Source of the DNA: Alphaproteobacteria bacterium
GTDB taxonomy: Bacteria > Pseudomonadota > Alphaproteobacteria > JBKEAR01
DNA: 64,000 bases
NCBI GenBank assembly: GCA_047972425.1
Contig: JBKEAR010000016.1
Span: 5,500 to 69,499 of the forward strand
Direction: 5' to 3'
Shown: piece after piece, positions 13,397 through 55,815 of the stretch
Layout: the number at the start of each line of letters is the position of its first letter
Position numbering within the stretch: position 1 is the stretch's first letter
The notes under the pieces: generated by a model
What the model was told of the DNA's origin: nothing
Databases searched by the model: none
What the model saw: the letters and a program-made list of their open reading frames with translations, nothing else
Position numbers and translations under genes: made by a program

Positions 13397-14326
13397 ATGT
13401 CACTATCCCCCTTTTTAATTGCCATTATCGTTTTGGCTGTTTTGGTTATTGTCCTTTTATCAATGAGTGTCAAAACCGTAACCCAAGGTTACGAATGGAC
13501 AGTTGAACGCTTTGGCCGTTACCATAAAACCCTTCGCCCCGGCTTGCATATTATTGTGCCGGTGATGGATAAAATCGGCTCTAAAGTGAATGTGCGCGAA
13601 CAAGTGATGGACGTACCCAGCCAAGAAGTGATTACCAAAGATAACGCTATTGTTACGGTTGATGGTATTGTGTATTTTCAGGTACTTAGTGCTAAGGCTG
13701 CCACTTATGAGGTGAGCAATTTATTTACTGCAATTTTAAACTTGGTAATGACCAATTTACGTACGGTTGTGGGCTCTATGGATTTAGACGAAACATTATC
13801 GCAACGCGAGCATATTAACACCAAGCTCATGCATGTGGTGGACGAAGCCACAAACCCATGGGGTGTTAAAGTAACCCGTATCGAGATTGCCGATATTCAG
13901 CCCCCACGGGATATTGCCGATGCCATGGGGCGCCAAATGAAGGCGGAGCGTGAAAAAAGAGCGGCTATTTTAGAGGCCGAAGGTTTGCGCCAATCGGAAA
14001 TTTTAAAGGCCGAAGGTTTAAAACAATCGAAAATCTTAGAGGCCGAAGGTCGCCGCGAAGCTGCCTTTAGAGATGCCGAAGCCCGCGAACGTGCTGCCGA
14101 GGCCGAAGCCCAAGCTACCCGCATGGTGTCAGAAGCCATTGCATCGGGCGATATTCAGGCGATTAACTATTTTGTGGCAACAAAATATGTAGATTCGTTA
14201 CGCGATATTGCCTCTGCACCCAACCAAAAAGTAATGTTTTTACCCATGGAAGCCACCAGCATTTTAGGCTCTTTAGGGGGTATTGGCGAGATTGCCAATG
14301 AAGTATTTAAGAAAGGCAAAGGATAA
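13397..14326 (+). CDS. qmcA: SPFH/band 7 protein (QmcA-like)
   Basis: VERFGRY, QEVITKDNA, QMKAEREKRAAILEAEG repeats; followed by NfeD gene. Confidence 0.9.
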   Translation: MSLSPFLIAIIVLAVLVIVLLSMSVKTVTQGYEWTVERFGRYHKTLRPGLHIIVPVMDKIGSKVNVREQVMDVPSQEVITKDNAIVTVDGIVYFQVLSAKAATYEVSNLFTAILNLVMTNLRTVVGSMDLDETLSQREHINTKLMHVVDEATNPWGVKVTRIEIADIQPPRDIADAMGRQMKAEREKRAAILEAEGLRQSEILKAEGLKQSKILEAEGRREAAFRDAEARERAAEAEAQATRMVSEAIASGDIQAINYFVATKYVDSLRDIASAPNQKVMFLPMEATSILGSLGGIGEIANEVFKKGKG

Positions 14327-22545: not shown

Positions 22546-22834
22546 AGAATAAAGCATAGGGAAAGCGTCATGTTGTAAACATGCTTTCAGCATGACGAGG
22601 AAACCGTCCCCTAGTAACTTAAAATATTAAAGAATAGAGCATAGAAAAGCCGAATAGGCTTTCCCTGCCTTGTCGGAGACAAGCCAATTATAGAGTTGGC
22701 ATGCAAAGCATGACAGGTCAACGCTTGTGTTGCGGGGTGTCTTGTCGGAGACAAGCCATTATAAATAGGCATGCTTTCAGCATGACGGGCAGAGCCCCAT
22801 ACATAAAGGGAAACCGTCCCCTAGTAACTTAAAA
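22546..22834. repeat. BIME-like mosaic of palindromic repeats
   Basis: CATGCTTTCAGCATGACG at 22580 and 22770; GGAAACCGTCCCCTAGTAACTTAAAA at 22599 and 22809; CTTGTCGGAGACAAGCCA at 22669 and 22741. Confidence 0.85.
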
Positions 22835-22901
22835 AAATACGCTACCAAAATATCATAAAAGATATTTCAATAGCGCACTTAAATTCAGCAACACGAAGTG
22901 T

Positions 22902-31501: not shown

Positions 31502-31706
31502 ATAGTCTATACATAATAAAATGATTATATAGACATCAGTAATAATTTGATGTTAAGGGGTTTGCAACCCGTAAAGCCGAAGGCTTTCTAAAAAAAGATA
31601 ACTTGTCTCCGACAAGATATAATCCCCGCACACAGCTACGCTGTGGGCAACCTCAAAGCATTAGGTAATACTAAAATTTATTATCATTTTAAGTAGTATT
31701 ACCTAT
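31502..31706. mobile_element. 205-bp non-autonomous MITE-like element, copy 1
   Basis: 203/205 identical to 34547-34751 with unrelated flanks; imperfect terminal IRs; no coding capacity. Confidence 0.88.
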
Positions 31707-31881
31707 ATTATAAAAATTTTCAGACAATCTCGATTTTTATTTTAAAGTTTATATATTAAAATAATCGAATATTTATCTTTACACAAAACCACGCCAATGT
31801 TATGGTTTATATGAAGAAATATTTGTAATCAATAATGAAAAAAAAAATTGTAAGGATTGATTAATTAACACGGAGGCAAAT

Positions 31882-33453
31882 ATGCTTAACTCATTAGGGA
31901 AAAGAGTTATATTTTTGTTTTCTGCTGTCTCAATATTTTTATCGGCCGAGGCGGCTAATGTGGATAATATTATCCCTGCCCCCCATGACCATAGCGGTTA
32001 TGAAGAATTAAAAGGGCCGTTTACTACAGCTTTTGAGGTAACCGAGGCTTGTTTATCTTGCCACGAAAATACAGCAGATGAAATTCATGCAACCAGCCAT
32101 TGGCAATGGAAGAGCCTAGAGAATGAAAATTTGGGCAAATATTCACGTTCGCTCAATAATTTTTGTATTGCCACACCGGGCAGCGAGGCCTTTTGTACCT
32201 CTTGCCATATTGGTTATGGTTGGAAAGACCCCAATTTTGACTTTAGTAGCAATAACGCCATAGATTGTTTGGTTTGCCACGATACAACAGGCCTATATAC
32301 CAAACAAGATGCCGGCATGCCCAAATTGTTAGATAAACCCGATGGCAGCCCAACCTTTTTAGATGATATTGCCTTAAATGTTGGCACGCCGGGGCGTGAT
32401 AACTGTGGTGGCGCATGCCATTTTAAAGGCGGTGGCGGCGATGGCGTAAAACATGGCGATCTCGATAGCTCGCTCACCAATCCTCCGCGCGAATTAGATG
32501 TGCATATGGCGGCCGATGGTGCCAATTTTGCTTGCCAAGAATGCCATACCACCCGCGAGCATCAGGTAGCTGGGCGCTCTTATACCACCCCTGCTTTCGA
32601 TGAATTTAAAAGCTTGGTGGATGACCATAATATGAGCAAACTGCCTTGTACGTCTTGCCATAGCGATACCCCCCATAAAGACAAGCTTGCCGCAAAACTA
32701 AACGACCATACCGATACCGTTGCTTGCCAAACATGCCATATACCCGCATTGGCACGGGGCGGATTACCCACCAAAGTTTCATGGGATTGGTCTACAGCTG
32801 GCAAGCTTAAAGATGGCAAACCCTATGAAGATAAAAATGAAGAAGGAAAAACCATTTATGCCAGTAAAAAAGGCGATTTTATTTGGGAACATAATGTAGC
32901 ACCCGTTTATTTTTGGTATAATGGTGCCATGAGCTATATTACCATTGATGATAAAATTGATGATAGCCAACGTGTTACCATTAACCATCCCCTTGGCGAT
33001 GTAAACGACCCAAGGGCGCGGATTATGCCGTTTAAACGCCATATAGGCAAACAGCCTTACGATACGGTGAATATGACCATGTTACAGCCCGATGTTGCCG
33101 GAAACGGCACGGAAGAAGCCGATGCCGCCGCCTTTTGGAAGCATTTTAACTGGGCAAATTCTTTAGCTGTTGGTACAAAAATACGTGGGCAAGAATTTAG
33201 CGGGGAATTTGATTTTATTGACACCGAGTTCTTTTACCCCAGTACCCATATGGTTGCCCCCAAAGAAGATGCACTTAAATGTGCCGAGTGCCATAACGCC
33301 AATGGCCGCCTAAAAGATGTTGCGGGCGTATATATGCCCGCGCAAAAACATTTTGAGTGGATAGAAATTCTTGGTTGGCTCATGGTAGGCTTTACAACTT
33401 TAGTATCGATTATTCATTTGGTACTACGCATCATCAACAGAAGGAGAGGCTAA
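31882..33453 (+). CDS. octaheme c-type cytochrome, tetrathionate reductase (OTR) family
   Basis: 7 CxxCH plus one CxxxCH; NNFC, GGGGDGVKHGDLDSSL, DVHM motifs; signal peptide and C-terminal TM. Confidence 0.9.
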   Translation: MLNSLGKRVIFLFSAVSIFLSAEAANVDNIIPAPHDHSGYEELKGPFTTAFEVTEACLSCHENTADEIHATSHWQWKSLENENLGKYSRSLNNFCIATPGSEAFCTSCHIGYGWKDPNFDFSSNNAIDCLVCHDTTGLYTKQDAGMPKLLDKPDGSPTFLDDIALNVGTPGRDNCGGACHFKGGGGDGVKHGDLDSSLTNPPRELDVHMAADGANFACQECHTTREHQVAGRSYTTPAFDEFKSLVDDHNMSKLPCTSCHSDTPHKDKLAAKLNDHTDTVACQTCHIPALARGGLPTKVSWDWSTAGKLKDGKPYEDKNEEGKTIYASKKGDFIWEHNVAPVYFWYNGAMSYITIDDKIDDSQRVTINHPLGDVNDPRARIMPFKRHIGKQPYDTVNMTMLQPDVAGNGTEEADAAAFWKHFNWANSLAVGTKIRGQEFSGEFDFIDTEFFYPSTHMVAPKEDALKCAECHNANGRLKDVAGVYMPAQKHFEWIEILGWLMVGFTTLVSIIHLVLRIINRRRG

Positions 33454-33454
33454 A

Positions 33455-34042
33455 ATGACAGAACGGACTTATGTGTTTACACGTTTTGAGCGCCTATGGC
33501 ATTGGTCTCAGGCTGCGATTATATGTATGCTTTTACTTTCGGGCTTTGCTATCCATGGTAGTTTGGGCGGGTTCATTGATTTTTCTACCGCTCACCGCAT
33601 GCATATGGTATTTTTATGGTTATGGTTAGGCTCTTATGTATTTTTGCTGTTTTGGTTACTTGTTACGGGTGAGATTAAACAATATAAACCCACAACCGAA
33701 AATGTAACCAATTTGTTTAGCTATTATTCATCGGGGATATTTAAAAAAGAGCCCCACCCCCACCAAGTACGCCGGGATAAAAAACTGAATGCTTTACAAA
33801 TTATCTCTTACGATATGGTATTGTTTATTTTAGCCCCCATACAAATAATATCGGGCTTATGTTACCTTTATTATAATCAATTTGGCCTCAGCCACGCAAG
33901 TTTGGGTATCATTGCGGCTATCCATACTTTGGGTGCATTTTCCTTTTTGGCTTTTTTGGTTATCCATATTTATTTAGCCACTACAGGGCCTAAGCCTTCC
34001 AGCTATTTTAAAGCCATGTTTACCGGATATAACGAGCATTAA
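33455..34042 (+). CDS. cytochrome b/b6-domain membrane partner of OTR
   Basis: FERLWHWSQA, HRMH, NALQ, HTLGAFSFLAFLVIHIY heme-b histidines. Confidence 0.88.
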   Translation: MTERTYVFTRFERLWHWSQAAIICMLLLSGFAIHGSLGGFIDFSTAHRMHMVFLWLWLGSYVFLLFWLLVTGEIKQYKPTTENVTNLFSYYSSGIFKKEPHPHQVRRDKKLNALQIISYDMVLFILAPIQIISGLCYLYYNQFGLSHASLGIIAAIHTLGAFSFLAFLVIHIYLATTGPKPSSYFKAMFTGYNEH

Positions 34043-34111
34043 ATATTGTTGAAGATAAACGAATAATAAAATAATGTCCTTTGCGAAAGGGAATATGACG
34101 ATATATGATTT

Positions 34112-34126
34112 GTTCACTTTTTGTTC
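34112..34126 (+). promoter_or_regulatory. alphaproteobacterial LexA (SOS) box
   Basis: GTTC-ACTTTTT-GTTC (GTTC-N7-GTTC) abutting a -35 element. Confidence 0.7.
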
Positions 34127-34155
34127 TTTACAAAATATATTTTTTATGGTATGGT
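34127..34155 (+). promoter_or_regulatory. sigma70-type promoter upstream of DUF559 cassette
   Basis: TTTACA-N17-TATGGT. Confidence 0.6.
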
Positions 34156-34231
34156 TTTAACAGAATAAAAAAGTGTGATACGGATTTTTTGGGGATAAGA
34201 AAATAATAGAATAATATCCTCTTTTTAGAAG

Positions 34232-34310
34232 GTTTTGTCGGAGACAAATGAATAATAAAATCGTCCCCTCTTTAGAGGGGAGTCAGGCTTTAGCCTGACG
34301 GGGTGTGTTT
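34232..34310 (+). repeat. left 79-bp inverted repeat of DUF559 cassette
   Basis: 73/79 identical to reverse complement of 34918-34996; three internal hairpins. Confidence 0.92.
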
Positions 34311-34336
34311 AATCGTTTAATAAGGTATATTTTAAA

Positions 34337-34934
34337 ATGACAAATAGAACAATGCCCAAACAGGCTATTATCCGCTATCATCCTGATTTAAATTAAAAAG
34401 CCAGATACTTACGGTCGCATAGCACAAAAGCGGAAGTTATTTTATGGCAGCATCTAAAAAATAAAAAATTACTTGGTTATCAGCTTAAAAGACAAAAACC
34501 TTTATTATCTTATATTGTCGATTTCTATTGTGCCGAACTCAGGCTCATAGTCTATACATAATAAAATGATTATATAAACATCAGTAATAATTTGATGCTA
34601 AGGGGTTTGCAACCCGTAAAGCCGAAGGCTTTCTAAAAAAAGATAACTTGTCTCCGACAAGATATAATCCCCGCACACAGCTACGCTGTGGGCAACCTCA
34701 AAGCATTAGGTAATACTAAAATTTATTATCATTTTAAGTAGTATTACCTATATTATTGAGCTTGACGGTTATTCTCATGATAATGAAAAATCACAATCTT
34801 ATGATCATGACAGAACTAAAGAATTAGAAAATTATGGTTTACATATCGTGCGGTTTACCAATGAAGACATTTATCATAATATAGAGGCTGTACTTGCATC
34901 AATTGAGACATATAAAAAAACACACCCCATCTAG
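34337..34934 (+). pseudogene. DUF559 (Vsr-like) endonuclease, interrupted
   Basis: Removing the 205-bp insert gives ...ARYLRSHSTKAEVILWQHLKNKKLLGYQLKRQKPLLSYIVDFYCAELRL|IIELDGYSHDNEKSQSYDHDRTKELENYGLHIVRFTNEDI...; also in-frame TAA at 34394-34396. Confidence 0.9.
34547..34751. mobile_element. 205-bp MITE-like element, copy 2 (inside DUF559 gene)
   Basis: Direct repeat of 31502-31706; clean removal restores the reading frame. Confidence 0.9.
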
Positions 34935-34996
34935 CTAAAGCTAGACTCCCCTCTAAAGAGGGGACTATTTTATTATTCATTTGTCTCCGACAAAAC
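34918..34996 (-). repeat. right 79-bp inverted repeat of DUF559 cassette
   Basis: Reverse complement of 34232-34310; overlaps the DUF559 stop codon. Confidence 0.92.
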
Positions 34997-55302: not shown

Positions 55303-55815
55303 ATGAATTTTAAAACGATTTTAGCAACAACAGCAATTCTTGCTACAACCGCAACTTTATCTGCATGTAAAGAAGAAGCCAAAGAAGCCGTTCAAGATAC
55401 ACAAGCTGCTGTAACAGAAACAACTGAAGCCGTAACCGATGCTGCTACAGAAGCCGCTGAAGCAACAACAGAAGCTGTTGAAGCCACTGCTGATGCCGCA
55501 ACAGATATGGCAACTGATGCCGTTGATGCAACAAAAGATGCTGCTGAAGCCACTGCTGATGCCGCAACAGATATGGCAACTGATGCCGTTGATGCAACAA
55601 AAGATGCTGCTGAAGCCACTGCTGATGCCGCTACTGACGTAGCAACTGATGCTGTAGACGCAACTAAAGATGCTGCTGAGGCGACTGCCGATGCGACAAC
55701 AAATGTTGTTACAGATGCCGTAGACGCAACTAAAGATGCTGCTAACGCCACTGCTGATGAAGTTGGCAAAGCTGCCGATGCCATTAACAATGCTGTTGAT
55801 GCCATCAAAAATTAA
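55303..55815 (+). CDS. Ala/Thr/Asp-rich repeat lipoprotein
   Basis: Lipobox LSAC; four 22-aa repeats. Confidence 0.8.
   Translation: MNFKTILATTAILATTATLSACKEEAKEAVQDTQAAVTETTEAVTDAATEAAEATTEAVEATADAATDMATDAVDATKDAAEATADAATDMATDAVDATKDAAEATADAATDVATDAVDATKDAAEATADATTNVVTDAVDATKDAANATADEVGKAADAINNAVDAIKN
55483..55746 (+). repeat. 66-bp coding tandem repeat x4
   Basis: 55483-55548 and 55549-55614 identical; two further diverged units. Confidence 0.9.

Follow-up and report, generated by a model that had tools for sequence, protein, structure and literature searches.

We analysed a window of 64,000 nucleotides (nt; 64 kb) of the AT-rich genome (40% GC) of an uncultured alphaproteobacterium. Between a cytochrome b gene (cytb) and mutT it holds a decayed nuclease gene of the DUF559 family, enclosed by two inverted copies (arms) of a structured repeat (Table 1). 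The arms are 79 nt each, 92% complementary and 607 nt apart in the repeat search, and the arm-to-arm alignment gives 73 of 79 identical positions. This is the same inverted repeat as was described in an earlier note made from the DNA letters alone (the sequence-only reading). When folded as single-stranded DNA, each arm forms three hairpins (TTGTCGGAGACAA, TCCCCTC-TTTA-GAGGGGA, and a variable stem), with z scores of -4.5 to -5.6 against shuffled sequences. The arms differ at six positions, exactly as that reading had stated. One difference is found in the AT spacer; four (AG to TA and CT to TA) amount to two compensated base pairs (GTCAGGC/GCCTGAC versus GTCTAGC/GCTAGAT); the last, C to T, creates a G-T pair.

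Table 1. Features of the DUF559 locus, in window coordinates
Feature	Position	Strand	Remarks
Two degenerate direct copies of the outer module and a decayed pyrimidine/purine hairpin, with spacer	34046-34231	+	copies at 34046-34095 and 34186-34231
GTTCACTTTTTGTTC, match to the alphaproteobacterial LexA box	34112-34126	+	overlaps promoter-like hexamers at 34113-34155; 225 nt 5' of the ATG
Left arm	34232-34310	+	outer palindrome, AT spacer, triplex-motif unit, tail toward the gene; from repeat search, alignment and folding
Outer hairpin TTGTCGGAGACAA	34234-34248	+	separate repeat module; other copies at 22670, 22742, 31603, 34648 and 34981
Pyrimidine-arm/purine-arm hairpin TCCCCTC-TTTA-GAGGGGA	34264-34281	+	strands 1 and 2 of the triplex motif; in the 64 kb, hairpins of this kind are confined to the two arms
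Variable hairpin GTCAGGC-TTTA-GCCTGAC	34282-34299	+	within loop 2 of the triplex motif; covariation in 10 units
Tail GGGGTGTGTTT	34300-34310	+	11 nt, innermost part of the arm; mirrors the purine arm, with G kept and T in place of A
DUF559 (Vsr-like PD-(D/E)XK) pseudogene	34337-34934	+	all family-invariant residues kept; TAG stop at 34932-34934, inside the right arm
In-frame TAA, codon 20	34394-34396	+	same TAA in an independent Logan assembly
MITE-like insertion	34547-34756	+	205 nt plus shared ATTAT; splits the ELDG catalytic motif; second copy at 31502-31711
Right arm	34918-34996	-	tail complement 34918-34928, variable hairpin 34929-34946, pyrimidine/purine hairpin 34947-34964, AT spacer, outer palindrome 34980-34994

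The only open reading frame (ORF) between the arms is that of DUF559. Its repaired product matches PF04480 (E=5e-35, profile positions 4-105 of 109) and has the conserved pattern VDF..C, E-x-D-G-x-x-H, D, R. Across 36 sequences including the repaired protein, R26, E33, W37, R52, Q53, D62, C65, E73, D75, G76, H79, D88, R91, and R104 are invariant. The gene is dead. Besides the in-frame TAA at codon 20, it carries an insertion of 205-210 nt (34547-34751/6) in the ELDG motif that is 99% identical to the second copy and resembles a miniature inverted-repeat transposable element (MITE). This element has imperfect terminal inverted repeats (ATAGTCTATAC... and ...GTATTACCTAT), contains an TTGTCTCCGACAA module and two GC hairpins, and is followed by ATTAT in both copies. 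Despite the death of the gene, the arms still hold their fold through the compensatory changes in the variable hairpin. The sequence-only reading had already recognised DUF559 as the sole cargo and the copy as dead, and had overlooked the insertion. It had also noted that transposase and integrase are missing and that there is no clear target-site duplication; none of the three is found at the locus. Several known kinds of element were accordingly rejected for the cassette: an integron attC site or cassette (the arms are inverted, not direct, and an integrase is absent), a terminal-inverted-repeat transposon or MITE (34232 and 34996 are not bordered by a direct repeat, and a transposase ORF is missing), and an IS200 or REP-associated tyrosine transposase element (RAYT; REP, repetitive extragenic palindrome), for which the HUH protein is absent.

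The site is empty in a relative. In two of its contigs (L086 and L087, ~88% nucleotide identity) the gap between cytb and mutT is 74 nt with a plain terminator, while it is 987 nt in the window; the sequence-only reading had suggested looking for such a site. A Logan contig with an identical cytb protein ends at the MITE and yields no empty site. The DNA that the window has in excess of the empty site is longer than the inverted-repeat cassette, and a target-site duplication cannot be delimited. The segment preceding the left arm (34046-34231) has no counterpart in the 74-nt site except the 12-mer GAATAATAAAAT. This 12-mer occurs three times in the window (34061-34072, 34250-34261, and 34967-34978; 0.13 expected), one copy directly following the cytb stop codon and one lying in each arm, and it also follows cytb in the empty site (L086, about 1140-1151). 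The outer part of the arms may therefore derive from local target DNA, as an inverted duplication of the flank.

The 79-nt arm, which the sequence-only reading had treated as one unit, is in fact built of more than one module. The outer TTGTCGGAGACAA hairpin is a repeat in its own right, found six times in the window versus 0.84 expected, and together with the AT spacer it makes up a local module that is not common to relatives. Rfam has no family matching the arms or any other part of the window. The right-arm hairpin followed by CTATTTTATT gives a terminator-like score reading outward, and both arms score so in the outward direction.

The inner part of the arm is the unit proper. Its order is CCCCTC-loop-GAGGGG, variable hairpin, GGGGTGTGT, that is, pyrimidine arm, purine arm, and mirror-image third strand, and both arms have the three blocks CCCCTCT, AGAGGGG, and GGGGTGT. 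In purine-motif triplexes the third strand runs antiparallel to the purine strand and follows the code G*G-C, T*A-T, A*A-T. The tail corresponds to the purine arm read backwards and not complemented, with G retained and A replaced by T or A, and as such a mirror image GGGGTGTGTTT is a candidate third strand. The three-hairpin fold of the earlier description stands, but the defining tail had been overlooked as a functional part of the unit. Judged by its sequence, the core of the repeat is the BoxC/PIT/TM intrastrand triplex motif (TM) with an extra predicted hairpin in loop 2. The repeat thus belongs to a published class (PMC4666352) and is not "undescribed" as first thought; its loop-2-hairpin form is a new structural variant.

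Stem and tail change jointly among lineages. CCCCTC/GAGGGG is found with GGGGTG, CCCCCTT/AAGGGGG with GGGGGAT, CCCTCTCC/GGAGAGGG with GGGTGAGG, and CTCCCTT/AAGGGAG with GAGGGAT. A complete mirror tail is present within 45 nt of 88% of 253 testable pyrimidine/purine hairpins, compared with 17% when the A positions are permuted; counting one hairpin per stem type (65 types), the values are 78% and 10%. A G-quadruplex as the main logic of the G-runs was rejected since it fails to predict the A-to-T/A mirror covariation. An alternative Watson-Crick pairing between tail and C-arm was also rejected; checked by hand, it gives mismatches in asymmetric stems.

The hairpin in loop 2 covaries as well. 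In ten distinct units, four of the five shared pairs vary on both sides and 96% of cells are paired, and the covariation score of 0.489 (0.216 when shuffled) is reached by none of 500 shuffles. The sequence-only reading, which had deduced selection on the fold of this stem from two compensatory swaps, was therefore right. Loop 2 with its hairpin measures 19 nt in the window, in the four closest relatives (L001-L004), and in the 93 metagenome units described below, and is longer than the 1-6 nt allowed in the ITxF search and the 0-10 nt of Hoyne et al. Many loop-2 hairpins in the window and its close relatives carry GAA triloops, which are typical of stable DNA mini-hairpins. The hairpin probably keeps loop 2 compact so that the tail reaches the first hairpin.

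BoxC/PIT/TM repeats reportedly go back to work by Bachellier in the 1990s and by Hoyne and Maher in 2000; the name changed from BoxC to PIT elements and later to TM (TMECO). Units of the kind seen here share with them the succession of C-rich arm, loop, G-rich arm, loop, and mirror G/T(A) third strand, the same triplex code, an intergenic occurrence as solo copies, inverted doublets, and tandems, and overlapping taxa (Enterobacteria, Cyanobacteria, and Neisseria). The window units differ in their long loop 2 with a covarying hairpin of its own, in a stem of only 6-7 triplets, and in having two copies in 64 kb. Furthermore, published work found no associated gene, while the window units bracket a nuclease gene. 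The E. coli TM forms a stable triplex in vitro as seen by circular dichroism and nuclear magnetic resonance, and PIT/TM elements block DNA polymerase in vitro (PMC4666352). TM loci are unusually variable, and that study did not find the motif on mobile elements or a function shared by the flanking genes (PMC4666352). Holder et al. (2015; PMC4666352) left the function of the TM and the logic of its flanking genes unexplained, and mention neither ycjD, the DUF559 gene of E. coli, nor any endonuclease.

To see how general the arrangement is, 84 DUF559 loci from at least six phyla were surveyed: L001-L004 (60% identity) and 80 GTDB loci with 40-54% identical genes from Bacteroidota, Cyanobacteria, Chloroflexota, Pseudomonadota, candidate phyla radiation (CPR) bacteria, and Calditrichota. 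L001-L004 have CCCCTC-N4-GAGGGG, a variable hairpin, and GGGGTGTGT on both sides of the gene with the tails inward; their contigs bear further solo units, and many copies are found in relatives' contigs. When the upstream flank is aligned with the reverse-complemented downstream flank, the median score is 35 compared with 18 for shifted controls, and 71% of the loci exceed the 95th percentile of the controls. At least one strict unit is found in 57 of the 73 intergenic segments adjoining DUF559 (78%, 4.7 units per kb) versus 40 of 273 other intergenic segments of the same loci (15%, 0.8 per kb), so that homologues are indeed flanked by such repeats across phyla, as the sequence-only reading had expected. 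In 46 loci the tail of the nearest unit is directed at the gene; in 15 it is directed away. In the sampled loci no other small gene stands between convergent units.

When metagenomes were scanned blind for the hairpin-bearing variant, 430 kb yielded 93 units. Six of them are within 250 nt of a DUF559 ORF, all with their tails facing it, compared with ~0.02 expected (~300-fold). Since only these six are near DUF559, most units are solo, like REPs. Doublets of this variant are mostly divergent in the same sample. Protein and repeat also diverge together. Protein identity and TM similarity are correlated (Mantel r=0.29 overall and 0.25 between phyla, p<=0.0005), and the correlation persists when labels are permuted only within phyla. 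Gene-adjacent and distant units of the same genome are of identical type in 55% of comparisons, units of different genomes in 18%.

L001 and L002 bear on the mobility of the cassette. Their DUF559 ORFs are 95.6% identical, with nine synonymous codon changes in 130 codons, while the adjacent major facilitator superfamily (MFS) gene is 81% identical (116 such changes in 425 codons); the block of high identity stops at the outer hairpins. In two Mucilaginibacter loci (L015 and L020) the flanking genes align at ~76% and the DUF559 genes at the same site cannot be aligned at the DNA level, suggesting replacement of the cassette at a conserved site. One Bacteroidales chromosome has a tandem pair of DUF559 genes (L019, 3001-3378 and 3552-3845). 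Phages (2 of 50,697 records) and true plasmids almost completely lack the family, and phage or plasmid cargo was rejected as a reading.

In E. coli K-12, TMECO no. 9 (1351239-1351204) is ~170 nt from ycjD, the annotated DUF559 gene of that locus, and its sequence equals three other TMECO copies, all of the commonest type. Between ycjD and this intact copy (L088, 11250-11440), the last ~40 nt of the gene are duplicated and a decayed triplex motif follows each copy, giving two decayed units and a partial ycjD 3' duplication. These duplications look like repeated repair or recombination events at the repeat. In MG1655, four of five TM doublets are convergent with the tails inward, the geometry of the window without a gene. 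The hits H69-H73, considered as a ycjD remnant, belong in fact to a different TM doublet locus, gcvP-ygfF.

Of 5426 E. coli genomes, 3378 have ycjD, with a median of one and a maximum of two copies. TMs were counted in 59 evenly spaced sampled chromosomes, 37 with ycjD and 22 without it. All 37 with ycjD have 14-32 other TM places (median 21), while those lacking it have 2-23 (median 5), 12 of the 22 having 2-5. All twelve sampled genomes with five or fewer TM places lack ycjD; the number of repeats is low only where the gene is absent, so that repeat copy number does follow ycjD in E. coli, in line with the link expected in the sequence-only reading. In terms of copies, three bands are seen: about 15-33 with ycjD, about 10-23 in some genomes without it, and 2-5 in the others without it (including APEC O1:K1:H7).

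Neisseria and Picosynechococcus DUF559 copies also have TMs, in other arrangements. The product of the gonococcal gene is 38% identical to the window protein, and the 3HRL structure is likewise from N. gonorrhoeae. YcjD and 3HRL, ~38-40% identical to the window protein, belong to the same Pfam family (3HRL matches the family profile with E=1.8e-34, and ycjD is annotated as DUF559), and TM units are found beside both genes. In N. gonorrhoeae (L089, 260-390 and 860-1000) these are repeats of ~100 nt, each terminating in a CCCTCTCCC-TGT-GGGAGAGAG-CT-AGAGAGAGGG triplex motif.

On balance, and with moderate confidence, we read the window locus as a decayed example of a two-part system that is widespread and mostly chromosomal. 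The system would consist of a small DUF559 (YcjD-family) nuclease gene and flanking triplex repeats and would resemble REPs with their RAYTs. As in REP/REPIN-RAYT systems (REPINs being REP doublets), a low-copy, usually single-copy and largely vertical nuclease gene is found between inverted copies of the genome's dispersed structured repeat, the repeats often form inverted doublets, and the repeat type matches the gene lineage. The analogy with REP-flanked RAYT cassettes drawn in the sequence-only reading is thus apt. There are also differences. The enzyme here is a hydrolytic Vsr-like PD-(D/E)XK nuclease without strand-transfer chemistry rather than an HUH Y1 (IS200/IS605-like) transposase, and the unit is a triplex-capable one of three segments whose arms lack GTAG/CGTC heads.

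In this two-part system, the nuclease would act where the DNA is transiently single-stranded (replication forks or extruded cruciforms), recognising the folded repeat and nicking either there or next to it. Units would then be copied, homogenised, or deleted in the course of host repair, template switching, or gene conversion. Since such host repair at nicks would drive the turnover of units, the repeats would depend on a usually single-copy gene, as REPINs do on RAYTs. While association, orientation bias, co-divergence, and matching of units within genomes are observed, we infer recognition, nicking, and turnover from the Vsr/homing ancestry of the protein, the REP-RAYT parallel, and the instability of TM loci. 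The nuclease may in this sense spread its hairpin repeats, as had been proposed. However, a hydrolytic PD-(D/E)XK enzyme cannot transpose DNA alone, and any spread must therefore use host recombination.

More generally, the data suggest that the orphan BoxC/PIT/TM repeats have a partner enzyme. Tentatively, and with less assurance than we give to the two-part reading of the locus, YcjD-family DUF559 proteins may be the missing cognate enzymes, i.e., triplex-reading nickases that drive repeat birth, homogenisation, and loss.

Several observations weigh against such a system. To our knowledge, no DUF559 protein has been shown to bind or cut a TM. The window has no TM besides the two arms in its 64 kb. 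The orientation of the repeats is not the same everywhere: the E. coli TMs are only downstream of ycjD with the tail pointing away, and the N. gonorrhoeae gene is flanked by direct, not inverted, repeats. O157 strains lack ycjD, yet have ~15 TMs (O157:H7 has 15). ycjD is found in phylogroups A/B1/C and the eef operon elsewhere (PMC12817139), and because ycjD tracks phylogroups, few independent events are behind the E. coli correlation. In Flavobacteriaceae, DUF559 has diverged at the same pace as 5 kb of syntenic DNA, a pattern that suits a domesticated gene and is silent on repeat activity. Holder et al. saw no triplex footprint in vivo (PMC4666352). Finally, Caulobacter VsrA, the one studied DUF559 protein, acts as a methylation-linked Vsr-like repair nuclease; it is SOS-induced and genotoxic without cognate methylation (PMC12907096). 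VsrA keeps a repair function in play for DUF559. The window protein has the same fold family as Vsr and VsrA, and a LexA-like box is found upstream of its gene. However, no cytosine methyltransferase is found beside the window gene, and flanking triplex repeats have been reported for neither Vsr nor VsrA.

The same gene could also be a free-standing homing-type selfish nuclease gene for which pre-existing TM doublets are neutral landing sites, the repeats being spread by something else. The family profile matches the catalytic domain of the I-Bth0305I homing endonuclease (PDB 3R3P, E=2.2e-5), and as in EDxHD homing endonucleases the acidic and histidine catalytic residues are conserved. I-Bth0305I is encoded by a mobile selfish Vsr-like nuclease gene and cuts a pseudo-palindromic target as a dimer. 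Filled and empty alleles at one site (the window versus L086/L087), the patchy presence of ycjD in E. coli, a cassette younger than its neighbouring gene in L001/L002, and the convergent MG1655 doublets without a gene all agree with homing. We nevertheless consider it unlikely. I-Bth0305I resides in a group I intron of a phage and has a long N-terminal region for DNA binding, whereas the DUF559 genes are chromosomal and intergenic, without intron or intein and almost absent from phages, and their proteins of ~120-130 aa (~130 aa here) lack that region. The gene is essentially single-copy although each genome offers at least 20 candidate targets, which argues against simple homing into TMs. In addition, the doublets of the hairpin variant are mostly divergent rather than convergent, and the Flavobacteriaceae gene has kept pace with its neighbours. 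The repeats may instead be cis regulatory or insulating elements for a potentially toxic Vsr-like mismatch or damage nuclease that is inactive on them; the arms would act as terminators for outward transcription and, once transcribed, would join the 5' and 3' untranslated regions by base pairing and so limit expression. The terminator-like scores fit this, as do the complementarity over 79 nt (a transcript started at the promoter-like sites at 34081-34155 would include both arms), the genotoxicity and SOS induction of VsrA, and the LexA-like box at 34112. This seems improbable to us, however. It leaves unexplained the solo, tandem, and doublet units far from the gene and the covariation of the mirror third strand with the stem, and the T-run stems from the local AT spacer, which is absent in L001-L004. 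PIT elements showed neither promoter nor terminator activity, and purine-motif triplexes do not form in RNA (PMC4666352). Dispersed solo copies and DNA-only triplex chemistry thus disfavour a purely RNA or regulatory role. Most doubtful is a host-beneficial structure-specific nuclease that clears replication-stalling triplexes and adjoins TMs through shared unstable intergenic hot spots. Polymerase blocking by PIT/TM and the variability of TM loci would suit it, and the ycjD locus of E. coli is a hot spot of replacement, occupied by ycjD in some genomes and by the eef operon in others. But E. coli lineages without ycjD thrive while retaining TMs, and chance co-location predicts neither the ~6-fold enrichment over other intergenic DNA of the same loci, nor the orientation bias, nor the co-divergence of protein and repeat between phyla.

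BoxC/PIT/TM repeats have been known since the 1990s, form triplexes in vitro, and mark unstable loci, yet studies have assigned them neither a function nor an origin nor a protein partner; the very large DUF559 family likewise has no assigned role. Linking them gives each a testable function in a model organism, with ycjD and 23 TMECO copies in E. coli. If YcjD-family proteins are indeed the cognate enzymes, they and the repeats would make a second, mechanistically independent replicator system like REPIN-RAYT, with a range that takes in E. coli K-12, Cyanobacteria, Bacteroidota, and CPR bacteria. If the link between DUF559 and the repeats is true, the arrangement of a domesticated nuclease with a structured repeat would have evolved more than once, and DUF559 would be a first natural example of a protein family dedicated to an intrastrand DNA triplex. 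The open-access papers searched contain none linking DUF559 or ycjD with triplex repeats, and the link appears to be new.

The LexA-like box upstream of the window gene (GTTC-N7-GTTC) is the single one in 64 kb. Since ~1.7 would be expected by chance, it is only a hint of possible SOS control of the locus. No such box was seen upstream of L001-L004 when read by eye, without a formal scan, and there is no gamma-type LexA box near the locus. The neighbouring genes at 31882-34042 are a tight pair, oriented convergently to mutT and argJ, that encodes a multihaem cytochrome c (523 aa; Cytochrome_cB and related families) and a cytochrome b of the Ni_hydr_CYTB type (195 aa). Other repeats in the window include a cluster of small composite units at 22560-22860, where TTGTCGGAGACAAGCCA..CATGC(n)GCATGAC..GGG, in direct orientation, and GGAAACCGTCCCCTAGTAACTTAAAA each occur twice; one unit there terminates in GGGGTGTC, resembling the tail of a triplex motif. 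There are also three 33-nt tandem repeats (CGGCTATTTTAGAGGCCGAAGGTTTGCGCCAAT-like) at 13962-14060 and, at 55318-55759, five tandem copies with a period of 66 nt that are 61-84% identical to the reference copy.

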